A DNA stretch of 64,000 nt from Eledone cirrhosa. Lineage: Eukaryota. The notes under the pieces are model-generated. The model was not told the origin of the DNA and did not search any database. It saw nothing but the letters and a program-made list of their open reading frames with translations. The stretch lies in the NCBI GenBank assembly GCA_964016885.1, contig OZ024743.1, positions 201,376,001 through 201,440,000 on the forward strand, given 5' to 3'. Both the position numbers and the translations under genes were made by a program. Below, piece by piece: positions 15,701-64,000 of this stretch (the stretch's first letter is position 1; the number at the start of each line of letters is the position of its first letter).

Positions 15701-16121
15701 AATCCCCTATTAACAGTAAAGGGCGAGACGTAAGCAGAAAGTTTTCCAGGCGCCTAAAGAAGTCCGGCCGACCGGCCCCAGTAGGGGCGTAGACGGCCAC
15801 CAGTCTAAAGGCACCACCTTCGCTATTGCTCACGTCCAGGACCACCAACTTTCCGTCAGGATCCCGGAAGATTGACCTTACCTCGAGATCCAGACATTTC
15901 CTAAACAGCACAGCCACTCCACCTCCCATTCCCGGCCGACTAACAGATGCAAAGATCTGATAATCGTCGAAAATCGGCGCCAGTGCGCGTGTGTCGGAAA
16001 TTCTGGTCTCGCTGATGGCAATTACATCCATTCCTAGTGACCTGAGGTCGTTGAGCAAGTGACCTTGCTTCCAGGGCGACCCCAGGCCACGAACATTTAA
16101 ACTTCCTACTCTTATGGCCAT
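12702..16121 (-). CDS. Tx1-type ORF2: APE endonuclease, reverse transcriptase and C-terminal CCHC zinc finger (1139 aa)
   Basis: SLNVRGL, ISETR, IGDWN, SDH; KSPGLDGLP, DQSKAFDRV, RQGCPLS, AYADD; CPRCAQSDETVLHALVQC; no stops. Confidence 0.95.
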   Translation of the reverse strand: MAIRVGSLNVRGLGSPWKQGHLLNDLRSLGMDVIAISETRISDTRALAPIFDDYQIFASVSRPGMGGGVAVLFRKCLDLEVRSIFRDPDGKLVVLDVSNSEGGAFRLVAVYAPTGAGRPDFFRRLENFLLTSRPLLLIGDWNGILEARWDCVGVSDRSGGCKSLKYLISQFQLSDRYRLDFPNAPVWTWTNRIGSSRSYIDRIFIRKRDRNSVGCPHFKTVAYSDHKLVICMVDLDKTCRLGPSYWKLNMSFPARKAYRDRVNNLVKQKLTGGVVNNRWWGALKREIRATSIGFSKEVAIEKNRKEEGLIAKLDEAICSGIATDVLAARMALDHFFNAKHEGCIVRAKARALRNEGTKAARWARFAETQRGNKTTIRSLTDRDGHELSDSKQMCEAFRQHFARLFGRMGESETAADFSPYLDGLPRLSTADAERCEEPITSVEIQDALVGCSSRKSPGLDGLPYELYVNMPDLFSDLLEALYCNWQQNGSIPSSVSRGVVTLIRKDENKRDTLDNFRPITLLNTEFKILAKVLAKRLALIVKDLVGEAQTCAIPTRSIHDNLHLMRYIIERVGCKPGFGGALINLDQSKAFDRVDHRYLEAVLEAAGFGPVFRSWIAAMYSGICLVVKVNGHLSEPFQISRSVRQGCPLSSLLYVLTLEPLLRKLELLQGIPLEPGRRKAASAYADDITVMVSDTSEIEVIRTHLEEYERLTGAKLNPEKSVGLQLGTWRGKSLPSNSVVGRWTDGPVKLLGVWFGPDLQVDKNWDEVTSRIANLTQKWAERKLSLKGRAEVANAYIASVIYYRLTVVPCPRPRLANLERLLFKFLWRGRVPLVRRSICCQHPLRGGLGMPWLMMRRHALRLRHLQIFCLNGEQVWSPFVRRAFPQLISLTELQSWVKKRPRLGDWHLECCQALTALCKVGNAVSGTSTQDFYRGLVEGKCDDVLGEALGVNEVELTSMFRRTFEPGTMDNFQKSLAWQCYRGALPVRDKLYRHGSAVRRTCPRCAQSDETVLHALVQCPCIADLWGYVEQLLSRVERIRLSSESIVKIDPPPSFGQEGQAIFLCLVAVAKEVAWWTRLKGLKTDTFLFGQSLINFFKFHLERKVRVEREVLPPSTFTERWVNVARMARVSGPTLIMRL

Positions 16122-16150
16122 GCTGGCAGGATGAATGGGAGAGGAAAGGT

Positions 16151-18059
16151 TTACTTACCTTCCGGGGTCTTGTGAAGGTCGGGTGGTTCGACCTCCATGG
16201 TTTGTGGGGTTTCTTTTGGGAACCCCTTTAATAGTCTTGACGTGGGTTTTACGTTCGGGGTTCCCACATCCCGAGGAAAGCTCTTTCGAATTTCTTTGTA
16301 TGAAGCGAGCGACATTCGCATCAGAAGCAAATTATCTGGTACGCGAAATGTGCTCGCTTCAAATGTTTCCCCGTCTTTTTCGATGTTTGTGCTTCGTGCT
16401 ACATGGGCCATCAATTCCTTGTTGGCCCTTCTGGCAAGCACGAAGTTTTTAATGTTTTGTTGCTCGGGTTTTATTTGTTCGTGTGATTGTGGTGGTGATA
16501 GCTTTGTTAGTGTTGTTTCTATTGTGTCTGCGTTTGTTGTGGGTGGGGTGTCTGTAGTTTCTGATGTTTGTGTGTCTATTTGTTCTTGTGTCTGTTTAGC
16601 TTGTTTGCGTTTGGGGGATTTTGGTGGTTGTGTTGGTGATGCTGTGGGGAAAATGTTTGTGTGGGTGGTGTGTGTATTTTTTTTGTGGGGGTGTTTGTGC
16701 TTTGTGGATTTCTTTTTTTTTGTGTTTTGTTTTTTGTATTTTGGGGGACTTTGGTTTTCCCTCATCTTCACTGCTGGAGGATGAGGGGTCTGTGGCTGTG
16801 AGCGTGTTTGTGTCTGAGTGAGTGTTTATGTTCTTGTTCGTGTGTGTATTTTGGGGGGGAGGGGGAATGGGAGAGCTTTCCTCGTTTCCCCCCTGGGTGT
16901 GCAATTTTGGTGGTTCCATTGTTGACGGTGTTGCTGGTGGTCCTTGTCCCGGCGTCGCCAGCAGTGGAATCTTTCGACCCCTTGCGCTTTTCGGCAGTTG
17001 AGGGCAGAAGGCTCGCAAGTGTGTCGTTTCCCCACAAAGGAAACAATGCGGCCTTTTGCCCTCAGTCATTATATGCAACACCCTCCCGTTTTGGAGGCGG
17101 ATGTGGTCCGGGATTGCTTTTACGTTTTCGGGTCTGATTTGGAGCAGTATCTCCAGATCAACCCCGGACCAGTCGTCCATGGCAGTTCTCGTTGCCTCTA
17201 CCGGGACTGTATCCGTTCCTTCCACGATTACGCAACCCAGGAGCCACCACATATCAAGTCCTGGTGGAATCCTGGGAATGCGCACACGTGCTATTCGTTT
17301 TCCCATGTGGGAGGGGTACATTATAACCTTGCTGGTTTTGCAAGGGGTCATTGAATGCTTCACAGCGAGGGCTTCAGACTTGAACAGCACCGAAACGGTG
17401 CCGTATTGCCTGCCCCTCTCTATGAAGTCTGTGTCCTCTCTGATGTATTTCAGTGCGGCTTCTATGTCAGCTTGGGCGATTATCGCTGCCCTCTTTGTCT
17501 CTACTGAGATGCATCTGAAATGCACCGTTCTTTTTTCCACTGCCTCAATGGCTTCTGCCGGGACAGTTAAGTTTGCCCAGGTCTGCTCTTGATTTATGAT
17601 TTTCCAGGCCTGGGCCAACTTTTCCTCTCTGTTGGTTAAGTCGATGCTGTAGCATGGTCTCCTTTTAGCCGCTGCCACAGCAGCGAAGGTGTTCTTGTTG
17701 GTGTTGTCACTGTTGTTGTTCTTGTTGGTGTTGCTGCTGCTATTGCTGTTGTTGTTCTCCCCTGTGTCGTGGTTACCCTCTGTGCTGTTGGCCTTGTTGG
17801 TGCTGTTGCTGTCGCTACTATTACTCTCTGTGCTGTTCGTTTTATTGGTGCTCTCGCTATTACCACCTTCTGCGCTGTTCGGCTTGTTGGTGTTGGTGTT
17901 GTCGCTGTTACCACCTTCCGCGCCGCTCGGCCCGTTGGTGCTGGCACTGTCGCTGCTCACATTCGTGCTGGTGGCGCTCCTCGCCTCACCTCTCCTCTCA
18001 ACGCTCAAGTCGCCGTTGCACGACAGCAGACCCACCTCTAGGGGGCGTGGCTCCGCCAT
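16151..18059 (-). CDS. Tx1-type ORF1 with CCHC zinc knuckle, probably one frameshift (ORFs 16596-18059 and 16151-16771)
   Basis: CFLCGETTHLRAFC (CX2CX4HX4C); low-complexity N/S/T N-terminus and P/K/T-rich C-terminus; lies upstream of ORF2. Confidence 0.85.
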
Positions 18060-21060: not shown

Positions 21061-22276
21061 TTAAGTTAGCCATGTCAGCTCATTTCTCTCAGCCCGGTTG
21101 TTAAGTGGGAGTCTGAGGTTCTTAATAACAAGTGCTTCCTTTATCCTTAAGGATCCGATGCTGCGTTCAGTCGCTAGGACTGTGACCAAGGGTCTACCTT
21201 GTGGGTTTCCGCATTTAAGGATATGTTTACGGAAGGAAGATGCGTTGGTGTTGATATGTTCCTTGATACGAACATGTAGGGGTCGGATGGTGCTACCTAT
21301 GTAAAACTTGTTACATTTATCGCATTGAATCTTATATACGACATAGGTGCGTAGGCAATCTGCCCCCCGTATCGGGCAGTTGCTGAGGGAACACGTGCCA
21401 TCTGCCTCGTAGGGTTTGTTGGAGAGGCATCTTCGCAGCGAAGGTCCTGTGTGGGCCAAATGTATGTCAAGTCCCTCCGTCCGTATGGCCCTGCGGATGG
21501 CGTTCGTAGTATATTCACTCAGGTGGGGGATTTTAAAGAAGCACCTGCTAATATTAAGTTTTCTAGTGGGTGTCAGTCTACTGGGTCTGGGGTCTCTAAT
21601 TCCGTTAATCAGTCGCTTGGGATAACCATTAGATCTGAGTAGATTACGGAATTGCGTGGTATGGGTGAGACCACCCATCGGGTCGCTGCATCTGTTAGTG
21701 ATCCGTGTCAGTTCATTTAGGACATAGCCTCTCTTAGCGTTGTTGGGGAGGGCTGAGTTATAATGCACAAATAAGTCCTTGCACGCTGCTTTGCGGTAGA
21801 AAGTGGTGTTTATGTCTCCTTCTTCCGAGATGTTGATACGGAAGTCGAGGAGGGCGAGTGACCCGTCTTCTCCTGGGTGTTCGATGGTGAAATCGATGTG
21901 TTTGGTCAGTATCGTTGAAGATTTGGTGAATTTCATTCGCCATCTCCCGGGAAGAAGTAAGTATCAGGATATCATCAACGTATCTGGAGTAGAAGGCGAC
22001 GGCGTTGGGTTGGCAGGTATTGAGTGCCTTGCGTTCCAGATGGTCCATGTACGAGATAGCAAGTATGCCGGACAGACTAGAGCCCATAGGTAGCCCAGAG
22101 ATTTGTTTGTACGTGTGGCCGAGGAAATTGAAGAGTGCATTATCCACAACGAAGGAGAGGAGTTGGTGGATGTCCGTGTGTGTGAGTCCGAAGCAGTGTA
22201 AGTTAGATGCTCGGACTCGTTCGGTCAACAGGTCGACAGCTGGGGATGCTGGTACGGAGGTATAAAGGGCGACCAC
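21061..22276 (-). pseudogene. Penelope RT (C-terminal half) + GIY-YIG endonuclease
   Basis: ORFs 21758-22276 and 21061-21936 overlap at a frameshift. Confidence 0.9.
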
Positions 22277-22293
22277 ATCAAGACTGAAGGCAT

Positions 22294-22389
<96 letters not shown>

Positions 22390-22408
22390 TGTATGTATGT
22401 ATGTATGT

Positions 22409-23013
22409 GTCAGGTCACCAGTGCTACAGGTAACATGTATCCCAGTACAACCTGTCTCATGGTCGGGTCGTTGGCGACTAAACTGGCAACCCCACCAAGG
22501 TTTCTTGGTGAGGAGTGTGGCTTTGGACATCCTGCAGGACTAAAAACAAAACCTGTCAAAAGGCAAAGAGGCTCTTAAGAGTCAATAGCCATCCAAAATC
22601 ACCGGGAGAGATGACCCCTTAGCCTTTGTCAAGGCAGAATTCTAGGAGAAGGAAAACTCTGATATAAGACCTGCAACCCTGATGGTATCCAATGATGTTG
22701 ACTTGCTCTTCTTTTTGGTAAATATCATCTTGGTTAAGAGAGTGGGACTGGCTTTGTGCAGTGCCTTTGCTCACTATAAAAGCTTCACAGCACAGGCATT
22801 GCTTTATATCTGGAGATCTCTCTGCACTTGTCGTCACATGGTACCATGGGCCCAGCACTATGTGTCAATAATTGTCACAAGTGTAGTGTTTGTACCAGAG
22901 TTTTTCAGTCGCTGGCTGGATTAAAATGTCACACTCGTTCAGCACATCGGTAGGGGTTCTCCTACATGGATATAAAGTAGTGGCCGTACTCGAAAACGAG
23001 TTGGCAGCCACCA
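22409..23013 (+). mobile_element. Non-coding interspersed repeat (SINE-like, ends in GCAGCCACC followed by a TA/TATG tail), copy 1
   Basis: Near-identical to 23659-24110; diverged reverse copies near 30290-30410 and 58892-59230. Confidence 0.75.
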
Positions 23014-23660: not shown

Positions 23661-24110
23661 TCAGGTCGCCAGTTAGTACTACTGGTAACATGTATCCCAG
23701 TACAACCTGTCTCATGGTCGGGTCGTTGGCGACTAAACTGGCAACCCCACCAAGGTTTCTTGGTGAGGAGGGTGACTTTGAACATCCTGCAGGACTAAAA
23801 ACAAAACCTGTCAAAGGGCAAAGGAACTCTTAAGAGTCAATGGCCATCCAAAATCACCAAGTGCCTTTGCTCACTATAAAAGCTTCACGGCACAGGCATT
23901 GCTTTATATCTGGAGATCTCTCTGCACTTGACGTCACATGGTACCATGGGCCCAGCACTATGTGTCAATAATTGTCACAAGTGTAGTGTTTGTACCAGAG
24001 TTTTCAAGTTGCTGGCTGGACTAAGTCACACTTGTTCAGCGCATCGGTAGGGGTTCTCCTACATGGATATAAAGAAGTGGCCGTACTCGAAAACGAGTTG
24101 GCAGCCACCA
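23659..24110 (+). mobile_element. Same non-coding repeat as 22409-23013, copy 2, with ~160 bp internal deletion
   Basis: Direct sequence match; jumps from AAATCACC to AGTGCCTTTGCTC. Confidence 0.75.
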
Positions 24111-24223
24111 TGTATATATATATATATATATATATATGGAAAGTTATATTTAAATTGTTGGGTTACAACTAGTAAATATTTATAACTGATATAAAAGCAC
24201 TCGACAAGTATTTGGAGTATATT

Positions 24224-24605
24224 TACGATATTAAATAAATGGAAACTATATTTATAAAACCATATTTATTTCATTATATATATTTCAGGGATATCATATT
24301 AACAATATGCTATGCCTTCCTCAGACAAAATACAATATAGACAGTTTTATAGATAAATAGATTTGACATACCGTACAACATCGACTTGTATTTGAAAAGT
24401 TGAATTGGCAGAATTGACTGCCAATTCAACTTTTCAAATACAAGTCGATGTTGTACGGTATGTCAAATCTATTTATCTATAAAACTGTCTATATTGTATT
24501 TTGTCTGAGGAAGGCATAGCATATTGTTAATATGATATCCCTGAAATATATATAATGAAATAAATATGGTTTTATAAATATAGTTTCCATTTATTTAATA
24601 TCGTA
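24224..24605. repeat. Near-perfect palindrome, 188-bp arms and 6-nt loop, with a hammerhead motif in each arm
   Basis: Arms 24224-24411 and 24418-24605 are reverse complements; centre TTGGCAG-AATTGA-CTGCCAA. Confidence 0.95.
24491..24567 (+). ncRNA. Minimal type I hammerhead ribozyme motif (mirror copy on - at ~24262-24338)
   Basis: Stem I ATATTGTATTTTGT/ATGAAATAAATAT; CTGAGGA 24505-24511; stem II AGG..CATATT/AATATG..CCT; GAAA 24543-24546; T-ATAT-A-TA cleavage triplet. Confidence 0.8.
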
Positions 24606-24630
24606 TATATATATATATATATATATATAT

Positions 24631-33720: not shown

Positions 33721-34519
33721 CTCTAGTAGTTTACCGCTGTTGGTCTGGGGTTGTTTATTCTTTCGGCAGTTGCCCGCTTATATAGCAACTAGCGATCATA
33801 TCTGATGGTCGTATTGCTAGCCACCACCTGCGACCCATTCTCTAGCAGAAGAATAGGAATTGGCAGAATTATCTGGGGATTGGATTAAGTGCCTCAGTAT
33901 TTCGTCTGACTCACTGTGCTCTGAGTTCAAATCTCACCAAAGTCAACTTTGTCTTTTATCTTTTTGAGGTGATTAAATAAATGACCAGTTAAATACTGGG
34001 GGTCAATTTTTCCTTTTATCTCTCTTTATCCCTTTCTCTCACTCTCTTTCACTCCTCTGCAAGAAATCAGCTGTATTCAAACCTAGAAAGAAATAGGCTC
34101 TACCAGATTTAAAATGCCCAAGAAATGTTGTGTGTTACAAAAGTGCTTTAATGACCCTCTTTTGTTTTCAGTCTAAGGATAATTTAGTTGCTATTTTCAG
34201 CAGTTGAAGTAACTGCATGGTGGCTTTCTGAGTCCCTTGATGGTGACAAAGTTGCTGGTGGGGATAATGATGAGAAGAATAACAAGAATGGAAAGCATGA
34301 TGCTGGTGATTACGGTGTTGGAAAGCAAAGAAATTTGCAGATTTAGAATGATATTGTTACTGTAGTGGTGGTAGTAGGAGTAGTTGTAGGAGTAGTGGTA
34401 GGAGTAGTGGTTATAATGGAGTACATGATGATGATGATGATGATGAACAGCATGTTAATGGTTAGGATAATGATGATGATGAGGAAGACTATGGAGAGCA
34501 TGATGAGGATTTAGATGAT

Positions 34520-37500
34520 AGTGGTGTTGGTAATGATGATGATGATGGTAATGATAATGATGAGGAGAGCATGGTGTTGGTGATGATGATGATGATGGTA
34601 ATGATGAGGAGAGCATGGTGTTGTTGGTGATGATGATGATGATGGTAATGATGAGGAGAGCATGGTGTTGGTGATGATGATGATGATGATGGTAATGATG
34701 AGGAGAGCATGGTGTTGGTGATGATGATGATGATGGTAATGATGAGGAGAGCATGGTGTTGGTGATGATGATGATGATGGTAATGATGAGGAGAGCATGG
34801 TGTTGTTGGTGATGATGATGATGATGGTAATGATGAGGAGAGCATGGTGTTGGTGATGATGATGATGATGATGGTAATGATGAGGAGAGCATGGTGTTGG
34901 TGATGATGATGATGGTAATGATGAGGAGAGCATGGTGTTAGTGATGATGATGATGATGGTAATGATGAGGAGAGCATGGTGTTGGTGATGATGATGATGA
35001 TGGTAATGATGAGGAGAGCATGGTGTTGGTGATGATGATGATGATGATGGTAATGATGAGGAGAGCATGGTGTTGGTGATGATGATGATGATGGTAATGA
35101 TGAGGAGAGCATGGTGTTGGTGATGATGATGATGATGGTAATGATGAGGAGAGCATGGTGTTGGTGATGATGATGATGATGGTAATGATGAGGAGAGCAT
35201 GGTGTTGTTGGTGATGATGATGATGATGGTAATGATGAGGAGAGCATGGTGTTGGTGATGATGATGATGATGATGGTAATGATGAGGAGAGCATGGTGTT
35301 GGTGATGATGATGATGGTAATGATGAGGAGAGCATGGTGTTAGTGATGATGATGATGATGGTAATGATGAGGAGAGCATGGTGTTGGTGATGATGATGAT
35401 GATGGTAATGATGAGGAGAGCATGGTGTTGGTGATGATGATGATGATGGTAATGATGAGGAGAGCATGGTGTTGGTGATGATGATGATGATGATGGTAAT
35501 GATGAGGAGAGCATGGTGTTGGTGATGATGATGATGGTAATGATGAGGAGAGCATGGTGTTAGTGATGATGATGATGATGGTAATGATGAGGAGAGCATG
35601 GTGTTGGTGATGATGATGATGATGGTAATGATGAGGAGAGCATGGTGTTGGTGATGATGATGATGATGGTAATGATGAGGAGAGCATGGTGTTGGTGATG
35701 ATGATGATGATGATGGTAATGATGAGGAGAGCATGGTGTTGGTGATGATGATGATGATGATGGTAATGATGAGGAGAGCATGGTGTTGGTGATGATGATG
35801 ATGATGGTAATGATGAGGAGAGCATGGTGTTGGTGATGATGATGATGATGGTAATGATGAGGAGAGCATGGTGTTGGTGATGATGATGGTGATGATGATG
35901 GTAATGATGAGGAGAGCATGGTCTTGGTGATGATGATGATGATGGTAATGATGAGGAGAGCATGGTGTTGGAGATGATGATGATGATGATGGTAATGATG
36001 AGGAGAGCATGGTGTTGGTGATGATGATGATGATGGTAATGATGAGGAGAGCATGGTGTTGGTGATGATGATGATGATGGTAATGATGAGGAGAGCATGG
36101 TGTTGGTGATGATGATGGTGATGATGATGGTAATGATGAGGAGAGCATGGTCTTGGTGATGATGATGATGATGGTAATGATGAGGAGAGCATGGTGTTGG
36201 AGATGATGATGATGATGATGGTAATGATGAGGAGAGCATGGTGTTGGTGATGATGATGATGATGGTAATGATGAGGAGAGCATGGTGTTGGTGATGATGA
36301 TGATGATGGTAATGATGAGGAGAGCATGGTGTTGGTGATGATGATGATGATGATGGTAATGATGAGGAGAGCATGGTGTTGGTGATGATGATGATGATGA
36401 TGGTAATGATGAGGAGAGCATGGTGTTGGTGATGATGATGGTGATGGTAATGATGAGGAGAGCATGGTGTTGGTGATGATGATGATGATGATGGTAATGA
36501 TGAGGAGAGCATGGTGTTGGTGATGATGATGATGATGGTAATGATGAGGAGAGCATGGTGTTGGTGATGATGATGGTGATGGTAATGATGAGGAGAGCAT
36601 GGTGTTGGTGATGATGATGGTAATGATAATGATGAGGAGAGCATGGTGTTGGTGATGATGATGATGATGATGGTAATGATGAGGAGAGCATGGTGTTGGT
36701 GATGATGATGATGATGATGGTAATGATGAGGAGAGCATGGTGTTGGTGATGATGATGATGATGATGGTAATGATGAGGAGAGCATAGTGTTGGTGATGAT
36801 GATGATGATGATGGTAATGATGAGGAGAGCATAGTGTTGGTGATGATGATGATGATGGTAATGATGAGGAGAGCATGGTGTTGGTGATGATGATGATGAT
36901 GGTAATGATGAGGAGAGCATGGTGTTGGTGATGATGATGATGATGGTAATGATGAGAAGAGCATGGTGTTGGTGATGATGATGATGATGGTAATGATGAG
37001 GAGAGCATGGTGTTGGTGATGATGATGATGATGATGGTAATGATGAGGAGAGCATAGTGTTGGTGATGATGATGATGATGGTAATGATGAGGAGAGCATG
37101 GTGTTGGTGATGATGATGATGATGGTAATGATGAGGAGAGCATGGTGTTGGTGATGATGATGATGATGGTAATGATGAGGAGAGCATGGTGTTGGTGATG
37201 ATGATGATGATGATGGTAATGATGAGGAGAGCATAGTGTTGGTGATGATGATGATGATGGTAATGATGAGGAGAGCATGGTGTTGGTGATGATGATGATG
37301 ATGGTAATGATGAGGAGAACATGGTGATGATGATGATGATGATGATGGTAATGATGAGGAGAGCATGGTGTTGGTGATGATGATGATGGTAATGATGAGG
37401 AGAGCATGGTGTTGGTGATGATGATGATGATGATGGTAATGATGAGGAGAGCATGGTGTTGGTGATGATGATGATGATGATAATGATGAGGAGAGCATGG

Positions 37501-40500
37501 TGTTGGTGATGATGATGATGATGGTAATGATGAGGAGAGCATGGTGTTGGTGATGATGATGATGATGGTAATGATGAGGAGAGCATGGTGTTGGTGATGA
37601 TGATGATGATGGTAATGATGAGGAGAGCATGGTGTTGGTGATGATGATGATGATGGTAATGATGAGGAGAGCATGGTGTTGGTGATGATGATGATGGTAA
37701 TGATGAGGAGAGCATGGTGTTGGTGATGATGATGATGATGGTAATGATGAGGAGAGCATGGTGTTGGTGATGATGATGATGATGATGGTAATGATGAGGA
37801 GAGCATGGTGTTGGTGATGATGATGATGATGGTAATGATGAGGAGAGCATGGTGTTGGTGATGATGATGATGATGATGGTAATGATGAGGAGAGCATGGT
37901 GTTGGTGATGATGATGATGATGGTAATGATGAGGAGAGCATGGTGTTGGTGATGATGATGATGATGATGGTAATGATGAGGAGAGCATGGTGTTGGTGAT
38001 GATGATGATGATGGTAATGATGAGGAGAGCATGGTGTTGGTGATGATGATGATGATGGTAATGATGAGGAGAGCATGGTGTTGGTGATGATGATGATGAT
38101 GATGGTAATGATGAGGAGAGCATGGTGTTGGTGATGATGATGATGATGGTAATGATGAGGAGAGCATGGTGTTGGTGATGATGATGATGATGATGGTAAT
38201 GATGAGGAGAGCATGGTGTTGGTGATGATGATGATGATGATGGTAATGATGAGGAGAGCATGGTGTTGGTGATGATGATGATGGTAATGATGAGGAGAGC
38301 ATGGTGTTGGTGATGATGATGATGATGGTAATGATGAGGAGAGCATGGTGTTGGTGATGATGATGATGATGGTAATGATGAGGAGAGCATGGTGTTGGTG
38401 ATGATGATGATGATGATGATGGTAATGATGAGGAGAGCATGGTGTTGGTGATGATGATGATGATGATGGTAATGATGAGGAGAGCATGGTGTTGGTGATG
38501 ATGATGATGATGGTAATGATGAGGAGAGCATGGTGTTGGTGATGATGATGATGATGGTAATGATGAGGAGAGCATGGTGTTGGTGATGATGATGATGGTA
38601 ATGATGAGGAGAGCATGGTGTTGGTGATGATGATGATGATGATGGTAATGATGAGGAGAGCATGGTGTTGGTGATGATGATGATGATGGTAATGATGAGG
38701 AGAGCATGGTGTTGGTGATGATGATGATGATGGTAATGATGAGGAGAGCATGGTGTTGGTGATGATGATGATGATGATGATGGTAATGATGAGGAGAGCA
38801 TGGTCTTGGTGATGATGATGATGGTAATGATGAGGAGAGCATGGTGTTGGTGATGATGATGATGATGATGGTAATGATGAGGAGAGCATGGTGTTGGTGA
38901 TGATGATGGTGATGGTAATGATGAGGAGAGCATGGTGTTGGTGATGATGATGATGATGGTAATGATGAGGAGAGCATGGTGTTGGTGATGATGATGATGA
39001 TGATGGTAATGATGAGGAGAGCATGGTGTTGGTGATGATGATGGTGATGATGGTAATGATGAGGAGAGCATGGTGTTGGTGATGATGATGGTGATGGTAA
39101 TGATGAGGAGAGCATGGTGTTGGTGATGATGATGATGATGGTAATGATGAGGAGAGCATGGTGTTGGTGATGATGATGGTGATGGTAATGATGAGGAGAG
39201 CATGGTGTTGGTGATGATGATGATGATGGTAATGATGAGGAGAGCATGGTGTTGGTGATGATGATGATGATGATGGTAATGATGAGGAGAGCATGGTGTT
39301 GGTGATGATGATGGTAATGATAATGATGAGGAGAGCATGGTGTTGGTGATGATGATGATGATGGTAATGATGAGGAGAGCATGGTGTTGGTGATGATGAT
39401 GATGATGGTAATGATGAGGAGAGCATGGTGTTGGTGATGATGATGATGATGATGGTAATGATGAGGAGAGCATGGTGTTGGTGATGATGATGGTAATGAT
39501 AATGATGAGGAGAGCATGGTGTTGGTGATGATGATGATGATGGTAATGATGAGGAGAGCATGGTGTTGGTGATGATGATGATGATGGTAATGATGAGGAG
39601 ACCATGGTGTTGGTGATGATGATGGTGATGGTAATGATGAGGAGAGCATGGTGTTGGTGATGATGATGGTGATGGTAATGATGAGGAGAGCATGGTGTTG
39701 GTGATGATGATGATGATGGTAATGATGAGGAGAGCATGGTGTTGGTGATGATGATGATGATGGTAATGATGAGGAGAGCATGGTGTTGGTGATGATGATG
39801 ATGATGGTAATGATGAGGAGAGCATGGTGTTGGTGATGATGATGGTGATGGTAATGATGAGGAGAGCATGGTGTTGGTGATGATGATGATGATGGTAATG
39901 ATGAGGAGAGCATGGTGTTGGTGATGATGATGATGATGATGGTAATGATGAGGAGAGCATGGTGTTGGTGATGATGATGGTAATGATAATGATGAGGAGA
40001 GCATGGTGTTGGTGATGATGATGATGATGGTAATGATGAGGAGAGCATGGTGTTGGTGATGATGATGATGATGGTAATGATGAGGAGAGCATGGTGTTGG
40101 TGATGATGATGGTGATGGTAATGATGAGGAGAGCATGGTGTTGGTGATGATGATGGTGATGGTAATGATGAGGAGAGCATGGTGTTGGTGATGATGATGA
40201 TGATGATGGTAATGATGAGGAGAGCATGGTGTTGGTGATGATGATGGTAATGATAATGATGAGGAGAGCATGGTGTTGGTGATGATGATGATGATGGTAA
40301 TGATGAGGAGAGCATGGTGTTGGTGATGATGATGATGATGATGGTAATGATGAGGAGAGCATGGTGTTGGTGATGATGATGATGATGATGGTAATGATGA
40401 GGAGAGCATGGTGTTGGTGATGATGATGATGATGATAATGATGAGGAGAGCATGGTGTTGGTGATGATGATGATGATGGTAATGATGAGGAGAGCATGGT

Positions 40501-43410
40501 GTTGGTGATGATGATGATGATGGTAATGATGAGGAGAACATGGTGATGATGATGATGATGGTAATGATGAGGAGAGCATGGTGTTGGTGATGATGATGAT
40601 GATGATGATGGTAATGATGAGGAGAGCATGGTGTTGGTGATGATGATGATGATGATGGTAATGATGTGGGGAGCATGGTGTTGGTGATGATGATGATGAT
40701 GGTAATGATGAGGAGAGCATGGTGTTGGTGATGATGATGATGATGGTAATGATGAGGAGAGCATGGTGTTGGTGATGATGATGATGATGGTAATGATGAG
40801 GAGAGCATGGTGTTGGTGATGATGATGCTGGTAGTAATGATGAGGAGAGCATGGTGTTGGTGATGATGATGATGGTAATGATGAGGAGAGCATGGTGTTG
40901 GTGATGATGATGATGATGATGGTAATGATGAGGAGAGCATGGTGTTGGTGATGATGATGATGATGGTAATGATGAGGAGAGCATGGTGTTGGTGATGATG
41001 ATGATGATGATGGTAATGATGAGGAGAGCATGGTGTTGGTGATGATGATGATGATGATGGTAATGATGAGGAGAGCATGGTGTTGGTGATGATGATGGTG
41101 ATGGTAATGATGAGGAGAGCATGGTGTTGGTGATGATGATGATGATGGTAATGATGAGGAGAGCATGGTGTTGGTGATGATGATGATGATGATGATGGTA
41201 ATGATGAGGAGAGCATGGTGTTGGTGATGATGATGATGATGATGGTAATGATGAGGAGAGCATGGTGTTGGTGATGATGATGATGGTAATGATGAGGAGA
41301 GCATGGTGTTGGTGATGATGATGATGATGGTAATGATGAGGAGAGCATGGTGTTGGTGATGATGATGGTGATGGTAATGATGAGGAGAGCATGGTGTTGG
41401 TGATGATGATGGTGATGGTAATGATGAGGAGAGCATGGTGTTGGTGATGATGATGATGATGATGGTAATGATGAGGAGAGCATAGTGTTGGTGATGATGA
41501 TGATGATGGTAATGATGAGGAGAGCATGGTGTTGGTGATGATGATGATGATGGTAATGATGAGGAGAGCATGGTGTTGGTGATGATGATGATGGTAGTAA
41601 TGATGAGGAGAGCATGGTGTTGGTGATGATGATGATGGTAATGATGAGGAGAGCATGGTGTTGGTGATGATGATGATGATGATGGTAATGATGAGGAGAG
41701 CATAGTGTTGGTGATGATGATGATGATGGTAATGATGAGGAGAGCATGGTGTTGGTGATGATGATGATGATGGTAATGATGAGGAGAGCATGGTGTTGGT
41801 GATGATGATGATGGTAGTAATGATGAGGAGAGCATGGTGTTGGTGATGATGATGATGGTAATGATGAGGAGAGCATGGTGTTGGTGATGATGATGATGAT
41901 GATGGTAATGATGAGGAGAGCATGGTGTTGGTGATGATGATGATGATGGTAATGATGAGGAGAGCATGGTGTTGGTGATGATGATGATGGTAATGATGAG
42001 GGGAGCATGGTGTTGGTGATGATGATGATGATGGTAATGATGAGGAGAGCGTGGTGTTGGTGATGATGATGATGATGGTAATGATGAGGAGAGCATGGTG
42101 TTGGTGATGATGATGATGATGATGGTAATGATGAGGAGAGCATGGTGTTGGTGATGATGATGATGATGGTAATGATGAGGAGAGCATGGTGTTGGTGATG
42201 ATGATGGTGATGGTAATGATGAGGAGAACATGGTGATGATGATGATGATGATGATAATGATGAGGAGAGCATGGTGTTGGTGATGATGATGATGATGGTA
42301 ATGATGAGGAGAGCATGGTGTTGGTGATGATGATGATGATGATGGTAATGATGAGGAGAGCATGGTGTTGGTGATGATGATGATGATGATGGTAATGATG
42401 AGGAGAGCATGGTGTTGGTGATGATGATGATGATGGTAATGATGAGGAGAGCATGGTGTTGGTGATGATGATGATGATGGTAATGATGAGGAGAGCATGG
42501 TGTTGGTGATGATGATGATGATGGTAATGATGAGGAGAGCATGGTGTTGGTGATGATGATGATGATGATGGTAATGATGAGGAGAGCATGGTGTTGGTGA
42601 TGATGATGATGATGATAATGATGAGGAGAGCATGGTGTTGGTGATGATGATGGTGATGGTAATGATGAGGAGAGCATGGTGTTGGTGATGATGATGGTGA
42701 TGGTAATGATGAGGAGAGCATGGTGTTGGTGATGATGATGATGATGATGGTAATGATGAGGAGAGCATGGTGTTGGTGATGATGATGGTGATGGTAATGA
42801 TGAGGAGAGCATGGTGTTGGTGATGATGATGGTGATGATAATGATGAGGAGAGCATGGTGTTGGTGATGATGATGGTGATGGTAATGATGAGGAGAGCAT
42901 GGTGTTGGTGATGATGATGGTGATGGTAATGATGAGGAGAGCATGGTGTTGGTGATGATGATGGTGATGATAATGATGAGGAGAGCATGGTGTTGGTGAT
43001 GATGATGATGATGGTAATGATGAGGAGAGCATGGTCTTGGTGATGATGATGATGATGATGGTAATGATGAGGAGAGCATGGTGCTGGTGATGATGATGGT
43101 GATGGTAATGATAATGATGAGGAGAGCATGGTGTTGGTGATGATGATGATGGTGGTAATGATGAGGAGAGCATGATGTTGGTGATGATGATGATGATGGT
43201 AATGATGAGGAGAGCATGGTGTTGGTGATGATGATGATGATGGTAATGATGAGGAGAGCATGGTGTTGGTGATGATGATGATGGTAATGATGAGGAGAGC
43301 ATGGTGTTGGTGATGATGATGATGATGGTAATGATGAGGAGAGCATGGTGTTGGTGATGATGATGATGGTGGTAATGATGAGGAGAGCATGATGTTGGTG
43401 ATGATGATGG
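34520..43410. repeat. Minisatellite of ~200 units, consensus GAGAGCATGGTGTTGGT(GAT)5GGTAATGATGAG (44 bp, variable GAT number)
   Basis: Read directly; very homogeneous, with units mostly 41, 44, 47 or 50 bp. Confidence 0.97.
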
Positions 43411-44800
43411 TGATGAAGAAGAACATAATGGTGAAGGTGATGATGGTGATGGTGATGAGGAGTGCATGATGGTGATGAAGGTAATGAAGGAAAACAAGTT
43501 GGTGGTGATGATGATAGCAGTGATGAAGATGATGATAATGATGATGATGATGTTGAGGAGGAGGAGAAGATAATGAGGATTAGGATGGTGATGAAGTTAT
43601 TGAAGGACGAGGAGAGAATCATGAGAATTATTTATGCTGATATTGGTGATGATGATGGAGGTGATTATGATGAATATGATGAGGAGGAGAAGGAGGAGGA
43701 AAGGATGAGGAGGGGGAAAAATGATGATGAGGAGGAGGAGGATAAGAAGGAGGAGGAGGAGTAGGAGGAGGGGGAAGTGGGGGAGGAGGGGGGAGGAGCA
43801 GGGCAGCATGATGAGGATTAGGATGATGACAGTGATGATGATGAGGATAAAGTGGATAAGGAAGAGAAGGAGAAGGAGGAGGAGGAGGAGGAGGAGGAGG
43901 AAAATATGATGCAGATTAGGTTGATGAAGAGAATGATGATGACGAGAAGATGGAGGAAGGGGAAGGTAAGATGAGATGAGAATTATGTTGATGATGATGA
44001 TGATGAGGAGAAGGTAGAGGAAGGGGAAGACATAATGAGGATTATGTTGATAATGATGATGAGGAGGAGAAGGTAGAGGAAGGGGAAGACATGATGATGA
44101 TTATGTTGATGATGATGATATAGTTGATAGTGAAGGAGCATGACAACAATGAAGTGTTGAGTTTGTTGTCAAGTAGGAGGACAATAAAAGTAAACCATAG
44201 AAATACCACTGAAAGGTTTCTAAAAGAAATGGAGTGCTAAATAGAGCCCCGTAAAGTCCTCTTATTTACACAGACACACTATATAATACACTATATAACA
44301 CACTAACACACAGACACACTATATAACACACTAACACACAGACACAACACATACACGCATTTACACACACAGTATATAAAACACTAACACAGGCACACTA
44401 CATACACACAGTCACACATGCACACTTTATACACACACTAACACACAGACACACTACATACACACATTTACACATTCACGCACACTATATACACACACTA
44501 ACATACACACTACATACACATTCACACACACATATGCACTACATACACACATACTCACAGACACACTACATACACACATTCACACACACTATATAGACAC
44601 ATTCACACACACACACACAGATACCCACACATACAACAGTATGTGTACACTCATTCACACACACTACATACACATATTTACACCCAGACTACACACACTA
44701 CATACAGTCACTACACACACACACTATACACACTACATACACACACACACACACACGTACAATGCACACAGACACACAAACACATATTCACACACATATT
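43410..44800. repeat. Degenerate (GAT)/(GAG)-rich, then (CA)-rich low-complexity tracts
   Basis: Read directly. Confidence 0.85.
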
Positions 44801-49257: not shown

Positions 49258-49316
49258 ATATATATATATAGTAATAATAAATTTGAAGACTAAAATCCAA
49301 AGAGGGCTCGATAAGG

Positions 49317-49354
<38 letters not shown>

Positions 49355-49530: not shown

Positions 49531-50299
49531 TATTCATTAGTTAAGCAAAACAAGACCACAAATTTCACAAGGAAGACATTATTAAAAGATTGTCAACATA
49601 TTTTAGTTTGATGTAAGGAATGTAGAGAATAATAATAATATTAATAATAATAATAATGTCCGTTTACAATTGTTTCGCTACTCCATATAATATTTCTGGA
49701 TCAAATGACTATATATCATTATTGATCTGGTTCAGTTGAAAATAATTAACATATTTAAAAACAGAGCAGCTCATCGGAACTTCAAAGGAATATAAATTAA
49801 GATAAGGAGAGAATGTTACATAATGTAATGTTCCATATATTGGTATTTCACTATGGTGTCCTGGGTGTATCAATTGTCAGCCATAATCAAGCAGTATTCA
49901 TCTGTCGAGGCTGCATTGTGTGAGATGTGCCTATGGGTAACATTACATTATGTTACATTATGTAACATTCAGATCTGCCTATGGAACATTACATTATGTA
50001 ACATTATGTACCATTCTCTCCTTATCTTAATGTATATTCCTTTGAAGTCCCGATGAGCCACTCTGTTTTTAAATATGTTAATTATTTTCAACTGAACCAG
50101 ATCAATAAGGATATATAGTCATTTGATCCAGAAATATTATATGGAGTAGCGAAACAATTGTAAACTGACATTATTATTATTATTAATATTATTATTATTA
50201 TTCTCTACATTCCGTACATCAAACTAAAATATGTTGACAATCTTTTAATAATGTCTTCCTTGTGAAATTTGTGGTCTTGTTTTGCTTAACTAATGAATA
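49531..50299. repeat. Long inverted repeat (~310-bp arms, ~140-nt spacer) with a hammerhead motif in each arm
   Basis: TATTCATTAGTTAAGC.. / ..GCTTAACTAATGAATA with few mismatches. Confidence 0.93.
50045..50168 (+). ncRNA. Hammerhead-like motif with CCGAUGA core and long stem II (mirror copy on - at ~49660-49782)
   Basis: CCGATGA 50050-50056; stem II GC(C/T)(A/G)CTC..GAGTAGC; GAAA C AATT G TA 50151-50162. Confidence 0.65.
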
Positions 50300-57940: not shown

Positions 57941-58465
57941 AATAGTAATAATAATAATAGTAATATTAATAATAAAACTTTCCACTTTTGCCCATGTGAG
58001 CCAATGTCATTGGGGTCACTATAACAACAATATATAAATGATAATAAAATTAGCATTAACAACAACAATAATAATAATTTCAATAATCTTTTAATGAACT
58101 TTTCATAATTATTCCTATTTACACATCTGTTGATATTGATTTTATTTTCTGAAAAAAAAAATGACAAATTTTGTTTTTATTTTATATTTTAGTTTTAAGA
58201 AATTTCAGAAGCTTACTATCTGTTTTATTCTTATTTTTATATCTCTTTTATTATCTATTCATTATTTAACATTAAACAAATATATATATATTACTCGAAA
58301 TAGAGTTGCAGCTATCATATATATATATTATTCAAAATAGTTTTGCAGCCATCATATATATATATATATATATATATTTGAGTATATGTTGGTTGTTTAC
58401 TGACACCTCAGTATGCAGATTGGAGCACTCGACGAAGTACGCAGGTTGGTTTGCTTACTCCGGAG

Positions 58466-58819
58466 TAATGTAAAATAAAACAAGTAAGTCAAATATGTAA
58501 AATTTGGTTTCGTTTATTATTATAAATTTACTGCTATATATATTTCAGTGACAGCTATTATTGGCTGTGACCTCTTCAGGCAGTCCAAATTGGTGTGGAA
58601 AAGACAGGTACACATGTTGTTGAAGTGTGTTTCACTCTGTCAATACATCGATATGTCCAGGTCATGGGTGTGTACCTGTCTTTTCCACACCAATTTGGAC
58701 TGGCTGAAGAGGTCACAGCCAATAATAGCTCTCACCGAAATATATATAGCAGTAAATTTATAATTTATAATAAACGAAGCCAAATTTTACATATTTGACT
58801 TACTTATTTTATTTTATTA
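58466..58819. repeat. Inverted repeat (~150-bp arms, 54-nt spacer) with a hammerhead motif in each arm
   Basis: Arms 58466-58614 and 58669-58819 are reverse complements with few mismatches. Confidence 0.93.
58692..58759 (+). ncRNA. Minimal type I hammerhead ribozyme motif (mirror copy on - at ~58525-58591)
   Basis: AATTTGGACTG(G/C) CTGAAGA GGTCACAGC..GCT(C/G)TCAC(C/T) GAAA T ATAT A TA GCAGTAAATT. Confidence 0.8.
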
Positions 58820-58849
58820 TATATATATATATATATATACATATATATA

Positions 58850-58895
<46 letters not shown>

Positions 58896-60063
58896 GGTTG
58901 CAACTCTATTTTGAATAATGGCATCACTTGATACTTAAGCATGAGCCACATGTGCGTGGTATTTTAGTCTTGCTAGGGACTTGCCTATGGCCAGCCATGC
59001 CATACATAGCAAGAAATGTCACATATCAAGCAGTGCCTGTGCTTAAAGTTTTTTAAATTGAGGAAAGGCTTTGCATGGGGCCAATCCCACACACTGAATA
59101 TCAAATGCATTTACCCAAAAAGTAGAACTGATCTACATCATTGGATGCAAACAAAGTTATAGGTTTTATATCAGAGTGACCTCCTAGAGAGATATCTTAA
59201 TGAACACTAGGAGTCTCTCACTCCACAAAAAAATAATAAATCTTCTTTAATGTTTGTGTGTATGGGTATTAACATCAGTATTCAGGATTTGTTAAACTGA
59301 AAAAAGTTAGGAGCGGATATAGAATTTATCTTTTGTCTTGTGGTATGTGTGTATCGGTCTATGTGTGCCTACCCATTCTTCCAAGAGATAAAAGTAAGGA
59401 TAAAGATATAAATATAGATAAAATCATCATCATCATCATCATCATCAGCGTTTTACGTCCATTCTTCCACGCTAGCATGGGTTAGACGGGTTGTCCTGAT
59501 GTAGGCAGTGCCTGGTCAGCTGACCATATCTTGCTCATACAGGAACTGGTTTTGGCTTGATTTCTACAGCTGGATGCCCTTCCTAACACCAACCTCATTT
59601 ATATAGATATAGATATGATTGAAAGGGGTCCAGAGGCAGGGTTCCAGGAGGATTTGCAGAAAAAAACAAAGAGGAAGAAAAGAGATTAAAAAAAAATAAA
59701 TTAACAATATCATATATATATATATTAGATAGGGTGTGGTAAAAACCAGCTAGACCATAGCCCACTAGAGTACTCAATACTTGGAGTAGTATAATGGGTA
59801 ATATGAAAAGATTCAGGACCCTGGTCGCCCTCAGTTGAAACGGCCGGTGTTCAGCTGTTGGCGTTTTGAATCTTTTCATATATATATATATTGACAATTG
59901 ATATATCGGACCTAGGAAACAATGTTTCCGTTGGTCTTTCCAATTGCTAATACTATCTGTCGGTCACAACTCCAGGGAGATGGAGCAACATAAAATTAAG
60001 TATCTTGCTCAAGGACATAATGCATCGCCCATCCAAGAATCAGACTCACATATATATATTGAT

Positions 60064-60255: not shown

Positions 60256-61979
<1,724 letters not shown>

Positions 61980-62725: not shown

Positions 62726-62772
<47 letters not shown>

Positions 62773-62968
62773 TTTCTGAATTTGTTTAGCAAGATTCTTT
62801 ATCTGAAATCGTGTGTTGAAACCGATATTGTTATAAATTTATAAGTTTGTAGATTTGTAAATTTATAAATTTATAAATATATAATAAATTGAAGTGAAAG
62901 CAACAGGTGCGTGTGTTTCTTATTGGCAACATGACCCTCCCAAAGTATAACAATATATATATATATAT

Positions 62969-63385
62969 ATTATAATAAAATAACAGGAGGCTGGACTTGT
63001 GTAAATCCTTGAAGGGTTTATTATACTATGATCATTTCAATGACCGGGTTCTGTATGAATCTGGTGATATCACGTATTCGAAATATAATAAATGAATATA
63101 ACAGATAAAGTCCATGGGCTGAAAATCATAGACCTGAGGACGACCGACCATCTAGCATCTTCCACTTTAGCCGGTCACCCTCAAGTGGAAGATGCTAGAT
63201 GGTCGGTCGTCCTCGGGTCTATGATTTTCAGCCCCATGGATTTTATCTGTTACATTCATTTATTATATTTTGAATACCTGATGATATCACCGGATTCATA
63301 TGGAACCCGGTCATTGAAATGATCATAGTATAATAAACCTTTCAAGGATTTACACAAGTCCAGCCTCCTGTTATTTTATTATAAT
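62969..63385. repeat. Inverted repeat (~200-bp arms, 15-nt loop) with a hammerhead motif
   Basis: Centre TCCACTT-TAGCCGGTCACCCTC-AAGTGGA; arms reverse-complementary with some mismatches. Confidence 0.93.
63272..63336 (+). ncRNA. Minimal type I hammerhead ribozyme motif
   Basis: ATAC CTGATGA (63278-63284), stem II ACCGG..CCGGT, GAAA (63316-63319), T GATC A TA GTAT. Confidence 0.8.
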
Positions 63386-63638
63386 AATTAACTCCGTACT
63401 TGCACCCCAACTACACAAACGAAAATGGTTTAGCTGCTTTACGTTGAGCACTCTCTATATTATTACATCAAGATTGACCATACGGAATGACCAACTCTAT
63501 CCAGTGGTGAACCTTCAAACCTAAATAAATATATATATATATATTTATTAAAATAACAGATTAAAGTTTAAGCAAAGAATCGCTGCTTTTACCCTTAACG
63601 GGATCTTCTGAAACTAACAAAGTCAATCTGTACGGTTG

Positions 63639-63710
63639 TTATATATTTGATATATATTTATCCTTATCGAGCCCTCTTTGGATTTTAGTCTTCAAATGTA
63701 TTATTATTAC

Positions 63711-63773
<63 letters not shown>

Positions 63774-63842
63774 ATAATAATAAATTTGAAGACTAAAATC
63801 CAAAGAGGGCTCGATAAGGATAAATATATATCAAATATATAA
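63639..63842. repeat. Inverted repeat (~70-bp arms) centred on (TA)n
   Basis: TTATCCTTATCGAGCCCTCTTTGGATTTTAGTCTTCAAA / TTTGAAGACTAAAATCCAAAGAGGGCTCGATAAGGATAA. Confidence 0.92.
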
Positions 63843-64000
63843 GAATCGTTTTATTTACTTTATTCTTAACTCTGAAGCCGAGAATCATTCGGTTTCCTAG
63901 TTAGAATTTTAGTCTACGACTTCAGTTATACCATGTACGTGGTTTTAGTCTTTGTATGCAATTGTTCTCCCTGCTCCACATATGACGTATTATCTTCGTT

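Follow-up and report, generated by a model that had tools for sequence, protein, structure and literature searches.

The 64-kb window of Eledone cirrhosa DNA, i.e. the whole stretch that was analysed, contains at 58378-58816 two 3′ ends, placed head to head, from a single family of Hydra-clade Penelope-like elements (PLEs). Both ends sit in a (TA)n run and are joined by microhomology. Insertions of the families B, C and H lie in the same window, and the features are as follows.

58354-58377: (TA)n target on the tail side, from sequence
58378-58673, minus strand: long copy, the 5′-truncated 3′ end (pseudo-LTR, pLTR, plus tail) of a family A Hydra-type PLE, from family matches
58378-58470, minus strand: one-sided tail of 93 nt, spanning the gap between the two preferred 3′ ends
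58424-58466, minus strand: hairpin 1, from predicted fold and pair table
58471-58614, minus strand: left arm, the portion of the long copy that is matched by the short copy
58543-58579, minus strand: predicted hammerhead core of the long copy, CUGAAGA-stem II-GAAA and then the palindromic UAUAUAUA, from pattern
58615-58668, minus strand: unpaired ‘spacer’, the additional 5′ part of the long copy, from matches to family copies
58669-58673: inversion-joint microhomology TGTGT, 5 nt, the overlap of both copies
58669-58816, plus strand: short inverted copy, ending 4 nt before hairpin 1
58704-58740, plus strand: predicted hammerhead core of the short copy, from pattern
58818-58893 (end approximate): (TA)n target on the short side, with a GT interruption
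24139-24611: family B insertion, laid out in the same way, with hairpin 1 at 24218-24196 (minus strand)
62968-63529: family C insertion, laid out in the same way, with hairpin 1 at 63391-63452 (plus strand)
63541-63712: family H insertion, a short arm at 63541-63632 (minus strand) joined to a tail-side copy at 63628-63712 (plus strand)

The layout of the original prediction, (TA)n, tail, arm, spacer, arm and (TA)n, was borne out and maps to 58354-58893, and so was the hammerhead palindrome, with cores at 58579-58543 (minus strand) and 58704-58740 (plus strand) that both read outward by the CTGAAGA...GAAA pattern. An Rfam scan of the window gave nothing for hammerheads at gathering score and only a weak tRNA match. 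The arms are identical at 139 of 144 aligned bases and differ further by one 4-nt indel, while the ‘spacer’ is ordinary family A sequence that is present in the long copy and missing from the short one. At 90% identity the long copy matches a family A pLTR elsewhere (L311) that runs into an RT ORF, and its outer end stops 9-10 nt short of the second hairpin of family A, which itself is outside the insertion. This palindrome layout is already known and ordinary for EN+ Penelope-like elements. A short repeat word flanks the unit in two tandem copies on the left (58292-58353) and one inverted copy on the right (58894-58918), and recurs at 24085-24110; its presence at both flanks, inverted on the right, suggests insertion into an older TA-associated palindrome.

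The element and its families

The units in the window were originally called unrelated, which holds at the DNA level, where they are not alignable (best local match 27 nt), but not at the protein level, as the ORFs of families A and B are 48% identical over 435 aa. Family A, of the 58378 unit, is large (2,504 first-look candidates); family B, of the 24139 unit, gave 800 candidates, the top 40 copies being 99-100% identical, and family C, of the 63200 unit, gave 3,694. The inverted copies halt at a recurring query position in all three. The short arm of the family B unit stops 5 nt before hairpin 1 and that of the family C unit 4 nt before it, the latter hairpin having a 48-nt loop and a decayed first pair; the family H insertion carries a variant hairpin with U-A at pair 5.

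Family B is a very young family with an intact element present, L081, which was obtained from two family B copies 3.8 kb apart. It reads, in order, inverted pLTR, pLTR, a 746-aa open frame, 1.4 kb of non-coding sequence, and pLTR plus tail; the frame is intact, with an ATG at residue 9. The protein has RWR, DKT, CxCx5C (CNCRDRSKC), CxxC (CETC) and CxH (CKH) and is without CCHH, and its GIY-YIG core holds a single Cys. Pfam returned no informative match, neither RT nor GIY-YIG, on Hydra-type proteins including the divergent L081, the domains of which were assigned from the motifs YRDD and IIY...YVG. The family A pLTR was followed by a homologous ORF in 18 of 20 loci; those ORFs are broken and no intact copy was recovered among the 20 loci, and their translations have RWR/RWK and DKT.

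Marks of EN+ PLEs are found in these insertions, i.e. a single ORF with RT and C-terminal GIY-YIG between pLTRs in L081, a 5′-truncated inverted copy with a one-sided tail, and a hammerhead motif in the pLTR, the core and stem II of which are predicted from pattern. So are marks of the Hydra clade, with an RWK-type motif and DKT replacing DKG in L081 and family A, the CxCx5C linker, no CCHH and CxxC/CxH near the EN end in L081, and a preference for (TA)n, a TA run ending 419 of the 492 non-read-through copies. The clade tends to be below 3 kb in size, and L081 departs from this at ~4.1 kb. By these sequence marks, we class the family A and family B elements as Hydra-clade EN+ Penelope-like elements. 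A Naiad-type PLE, with N-terminal EN, was rejected on the C-terminal EN and the presence of a hammerhead core, and a MITE or fold-back DNA transposon on the variable centres, the many armless copies and the asymmetric ends. For families H and I, a hammerhead was not found within 330 nt upstream of hairpin 2, though an ORF is present in family H. Tail pieces of family H lie at 63632-63849 and 49260-49337, and two converge on one (TA)n run.

A pair of bulged hairpins

The shared tail words noted originally are present, with AGCACTCGAC at 58424 and 24196, GGAGTA at 58462 and 24214, and GCAAGTACGGAGT on the minus strand at 63391-63403. The linear motif as first aligned had to be rejected for the third unit, where the counterpart of GCACTCGAC is not GCAAGTAC but GTTGAGCACT at 63443-63452, with 48 nt between it and the other half. 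Two halves make up the motif, RCUC-Y ... R-UY-GAGY-RCU on the element strand, and the loop between them varies from 3 to 48 nt; the predicted fold has a stem of 4 bp, then a pyrimidine bulge of 2 nt, then an upper stem. The copy at 58424-58466 comprises an ACUC/GAGU stem, a 2-nt UC bulge, a C-G pair, a GGAGUA/UACUUC upper stem, an AC-rich loop and a 3′ GCU, and its predicted fold was matched in stability by none of 200 shuffles (z −3.4). The whole tail of family B gave z −1.9, and the decayed hairpin 1 of the family C unit itself folded no better than shuffles (z −0.07).

Genome samples taken at even spacing, 720 kb in all, gave 14 matches to the motif, 11 of them with a hammerhead upstream, versus 0-1 in five Markov controls; the enlarged 1.32-Mb sample had 21, of which 16 had a hammerhead 40-110 nt upstream. 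Genome-wide, one exact variant matched 20,439 times versus 8 for the reversed control, and other exact variants 6,615 versus 3 and 92,751 versus 339 times. The recurrence is not chance. In a pair table of 28 family-level hairpins (hairpins 1 and 2, one copy each), pair 1 is A-U in 13, G-C in 14 and unpaired in 1, varying mostly between hairpin 1 and hairpin 2; pair 5 is C-G in 25, U-A in 2 and U-G in 1; pair 6 forms in 21 of 28, through six pair types, and pairs 7 and 8 are paired in only 15 and 16 of 28. Thus, pairs 1, 5 and 6 covary between families, through few independent changes. The U-A form at pair 5 accounts for 92,751 genomic matches versus 5,802 for the C-A mismatch, many of the latter from one satellite array. 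Such a tandem array (G000:C1:14234975-14241494) has a 58-bp unit that contains a family I hairpin variant, and is apparently a satellite born from a PLE tail. The 3′ strand of the hairpin, GAGYRCUC (e.g. 58423-58430), is a near-perfect palindrome (GAGUACUC, GAGCGCUC), which could permit pairing between the two hairpins or between RNAs.

L081 has a second hairpin, with G-C at pair 1, just past the tail end and ~20 nt before the ATG. Its pattern matched 2,900 times genome-wide versus 72 for the control, and among 30 such loci a Hydra-type ORF follows in 21 and hairpin 1 lies upstream by pattern in 16, with ~20-45 nt between hairpin 2 and the ATG. The two hairpins are spaced 74-99 nt apart in eleven references, with 99 nt in family A and ~140 nt in family C, and the long end tracks hairpin 2 as this spacing varies. 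Ordinary insertions are without hairpin 2 because long copies stop just before it. It commonly consists of no more than five pairs and would then need protein to be stable. The pattern search gave 0 matches for a second hairpin of family E, and none is assigned to families G and J; that of family C is defined by 20 pattern matches and one further locus (L289), with no continuous copy obtained that carries both hairpins. Among the matches listed (92,751 in all), the hairpin is carried most often by family I. No ORF or hammerhead was seen at a family I locus (L291) and no ORF after hairpin 2 in families D and D2, and these three are possibly non-autonomous elements that keep both hairpins.

Positions of the insertion ends and how they may arise

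Sixteen references were aligned to all collected loci, which yielded 534 copies, 153 from unbiased samples and 381 from searches selecting for tail or motif. Of these copies, 273 have a (TA)n junction mapped to the base near a hairpin, 1 has it elsewhere and 145 have TA junctions that could not be mapped; the others are without a TA run (73) or read through (42). The mapped junctions, which come from ten family groups, fall 2-10 nt to the 5′ side of either hairpin in 257 of 273 cases, with the last templated base in this interval before hairpin 1 at 113 of 119 short ends and before hairpin 2 at 144 of 154 long ends. The unbiased samples alone placed 79 of 83 mapped ends at −10 to −2 from a hairpin, and by an alignment-end criterion 33 of the 534 copies end at neither site. 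The offsets scatter over about 8 nt with modes that differ between families, and target microhomology at mapped ends is mostly 2-4 nt. Local TA microhomology picks the exact base inside this ~8-nt window.

The tail motif had originally been proposed as a cis-signal that fixes the boundary of the inverted copy, with the arm starting just after GGAGT. In the larger set, spanning ten family groups, the motif is enriched and keeps its position near the short-arm end; what fell away is the exactness, as the arms begin 4, 5 and 4 nt later in the three units and the boundary is a ~8-nt window, and the form of the signal, which is a covarying hairpin on the element strand and not a linear word, with a second copy marking the tail end. 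These positions suggest that the motif causes the boundary. The hammerhead was rejected as the cause of either outer end, since the ends lie 55-230 nt downstream of it.

Pairing of the ends was determined for 141 head-to-head pairs, among which 101 were long+short, 3 long+long and 1 short+short, the other 36 being read-through or unclassified. The 37 unbiased pairs comprised 29 long+short, 1 long+long and 1 short+short, i.e. 29 of the 31 classifiable (p about 2e-7 versus independent choice), and long and short ends are about equally common in the unbiased samples (67 and 70). Unpaired copies there are 31 short and 26 long; this near-equality agrees with the two-start reading set out below only where the partner escapes view through small size or distance, and is not fully explained. 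Microhomology at the joint is mixed in family B, where 7 pairs range from an overlap of +1 to a gap of 14. The inner (5′) arm ends of family B cluster at −195/−196 from hairpin 1 in 6 of 7 pairs, which is perhaps the RNA start; the pairs examined included L035, L038, L041, L044, L046 and the window unit at 24414.

From this positional evidence, the two RNA hairpins probably position two internal RT starts, one primed from each cut target strand. The element protein, probably dimeric like the form predicted for PAc of the lizard, would bind hairpins 1 and 2 of one RNA, and its endonuclease would cut both strands of the (TA)n target. Each cut 3′ end would then anneal, through 2-4 nt of microhomology, to UA-rich sequence immediately 5′ of a hairpin and be extended; both cDNAs would stop early, and their 5′-side ends would be joined head to head by microhomology. 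The copy started at hairpin 2 would carry the tail including hairpin 1, and the copy started at hairpin 1 would not. If the starts are set by hairpins 1 and 2, tail length equals hairpin spacing, and two-hairpin priming would explain why there is a tail, how long it is, why either copy may bear it and why long ends pair with short ones.

A broader form of this reading, on which we are evenly divided, is that the tandem bulged RNA hairpins act as a two-station jig for an RT dimer, which would hold both on one RNA and prime simultaneously from the two target strands, giving one long and one short 3′ end per insertion with a tail equal to the hairpin spacing, and that octopus, coral and sea cucumber share the conserved signal, a portable, definable start signal for a telomerase-related RT. 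Penelope-like elements are the closest mobile relatives of telomerase.

An unlikely alternative, the best placed of those considered, has the motifs acting in DNA, where the GIY-YIG endonuclease would recognise them and cut a few bases 5′ of each to resolve a longer intermediate. Stems are possible in single-stranded DNA too, the available text of Craig et al. (PMC8557442) attributes the tail to ‘EN-mediated resolution’, and that of Frangieh et al. (PMC11167929) has the D. virilis EN needing the tail to recognise plasmid DNA. The latter text also has the PAc tail ends coinciding with RT start sites in vitro, and the 2-4 nt TA microhomology and the 8-nt scatter of ends are as expected from priming; moreover, at pairs 5-8 on the element strand G-U (12) exceeds A-C (6), which weakly favours sense RNA.

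The ends might instead be set by UA-rich microhomology, or by RNA 3′ ends processed 5′ of the hairpins, which would then do another job (translation control before the ATG, packaging, or dimerisation via the near-palindromic GAGYRCUC) or only block a nuclease. This reading comes next and seems improbable. A UA-rich patch does precede every hairpin, hairpin 2 does lie ~20-45 nt before the ATG, and non-Hydra families appear two-ended without this hairpin. However, the RNA offers a better primer match than the used sites, a perfect 8-9-nt TA run 65-74 nt upstream, and this decoy holds the end in only 2 of 186 spanning copies versus 62 at the short site (0 versus 12 of 20 in the unbiased samples). 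Processing alone leaves one end of each kind per insertion unexplained, and PAc initiates internally irrespective of the RNA 3′ end in the available part of PMC11167929.

Fold-back self-priming of one cDNA or antisense template, the short end being a chance cut or stop of the fold-back copy, was put forward for PLE inversions in the available part of Arkhipova et al. 2013 (PMC3846280) and agrees with some family B pairs in which both 5′ ends lie at nearly the same base, but is very unlikely, as the arms of the 58378 unit differ in their 5′ ends, with a 5-nt microhomology joint and a 54-nt unpaired stretch, and as neither the link between the short end and hairpin 1, seen in ten family groups, nor the presence of tails on one copy or the other (short+through in 13 pairs, long+through in 6) follows from fold-back by itself.

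Scope and comparison with known systems

Two-hairpin priming as proposed here concerns Hydra-type elements. When 3′ ends linked to ORFs were scanned over >100 nt, the hairpin was in 0 of 10 from the L082-type PLE group, which has a different Cys linker (9 further 3′ ends, shortened by an early TA run, were outside the 10), and in 18 of 26 Hydra-type ORFs scanned likewise, several of the rest appearing to be unrelated downstream cores. Several large hammerhead clusters in the unbiased sample had no hairpin, and some hairpin-free PLE families appear to have two end clusters. The hairpin as a universal cause of PLE tails was rejected on the L082-type elements and these seemingly two-ended families. 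One hairpin-free 3′ end, of a family with an L082-type ORF elsewhere, adjoins the family C unit at about 62770-62950, and the ends of this family seem to fall into two clusters separated by about 55-60 nt. A broken PLE ORF of another type lies at 21061-22414 (minus strand), with RT (PF00078, E 2e-10) and GIY-YIG (PF01541, just below cut-off).

By eye, the published consensi Hydra-2_Amil, Hydra-2_Ajap and Hydra-1_Ajap have a similar hairpin that carries U-A at pair 5 and either follows the hammerhead or precedes the ATG, and Hydra-1_Ajap has two in tandem before the ATG. Only weak versions were seen in Hydra-1_Crog, Hydra-1_Amil and Hydra-1_Obim, the last of which stops at the short end and has its weak hairpin before the ATG.

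The Hydra clade, as described in the available portion of Craig et al. 2021 (PMC8557442), is C-terminal EN+ with its own protein marks, a pLTR hammerhead, (TA)n targets and a one-sided tail, and includes the octopus family Hydra-1_Obim. The present elements are alike in the protein marks, the pLTR hammerhead, (TA)n, the 5′-truncated inverted copy and the one-sided tail, whereas that portion of the account does not name an end hairpin, gives tails of 30-40 nt versus about 75-140 nt here, and a size generally ‘<3 kb’ versus ~4.1 kb, with a 1.4-kb 3′ non-coding region, for L081. The available text on PAc, a Poseidon element of Anolis carolinensis (Frangieh et al. 2024, PMC11167929), describes two internal RT starts that bound the tail, cutting and extension of both target strands, a predicted dimer and AT-rich targets. 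An AC-rich loop is common to PAc and families A and C, but PAc is of another clade and, in that text, initiates inside one AC-rich stem-loop within the ORF, whereas the two ends studied here are each found 5′ of a separate bulged hairpin, before the ATG is reached; also, its starts were shown biochemically, whereas the ends here are mapped from sequence. No RCUC...GAGY motif was found by eye in the PAc RNA of Fig. S1 (PMC11167929), and a term search of the supplements available gave no match, their figures being pictures, so that a hairpin in Fig. S2 could be missed.

Hammerheads described earlier have a palindromic stem III and opposite-strand core pairs 100-700 bp apart, both shared here, where the hammerhead marks neither outer end and sits 60-90 nt upstream of hairpin 1. 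Priming from both target strands is a likeness to L1 twin priming, with the difference that RNA structure is not known to fix the second L1 site. Hepadnavirus epsilon, a bulged stem-loop that positions a reverse transcriptase and templates protein priming from the bulge, and the template-positioning elements of telomerase may be compared for RT positioning. Unlike with epsilon, copying here would begin outside and 5′ of the stem. All three likenesses are analogies without membership.

The origin of the inverted ends and one-sided tail of PLEs is a stated open question in the available parts of PMC8557442 and PMC11167929; the in vitro study of PAc (PMC11167929) linked the tail to two RT starts, and what sets them is not given in the text available. 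No account of the twin hairpin turned up in a literature search, the coverage of which excluded subscription papers, Repbase notes and picture-only supplements, and the available part of PMC13282606 mentions neither Hydra nor hairpins. The new part is the hairpin pair at the ends; the element class and the layout are known. A conserved, covarying hairpin pair, each member at a near-fixed distance from one end, makes the tail origin directly testable, and also offers a route to the true boundaries of well over 100,000 motif-bearing copies in the E. cirrhosa genome; it covers one clade only.

Elsewhere in the window, a 770-bp palindrome at 49531-50299 has 199-nt arms matching at 96%, with no hammerhead core found in it, and a nested palindrome of repeat fragments at 60334-61914, 94% complementary, has a long (TA)n run in its middle. 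An uninterrupted 1150-aa endonuclease-RT frame at 12702-16154 (minus strand) belongs to what we take to be a LINE, its type judged from motifs, and a 9-kb tandem repeat with a GC skew of 0.89 occupies 34455-43631.
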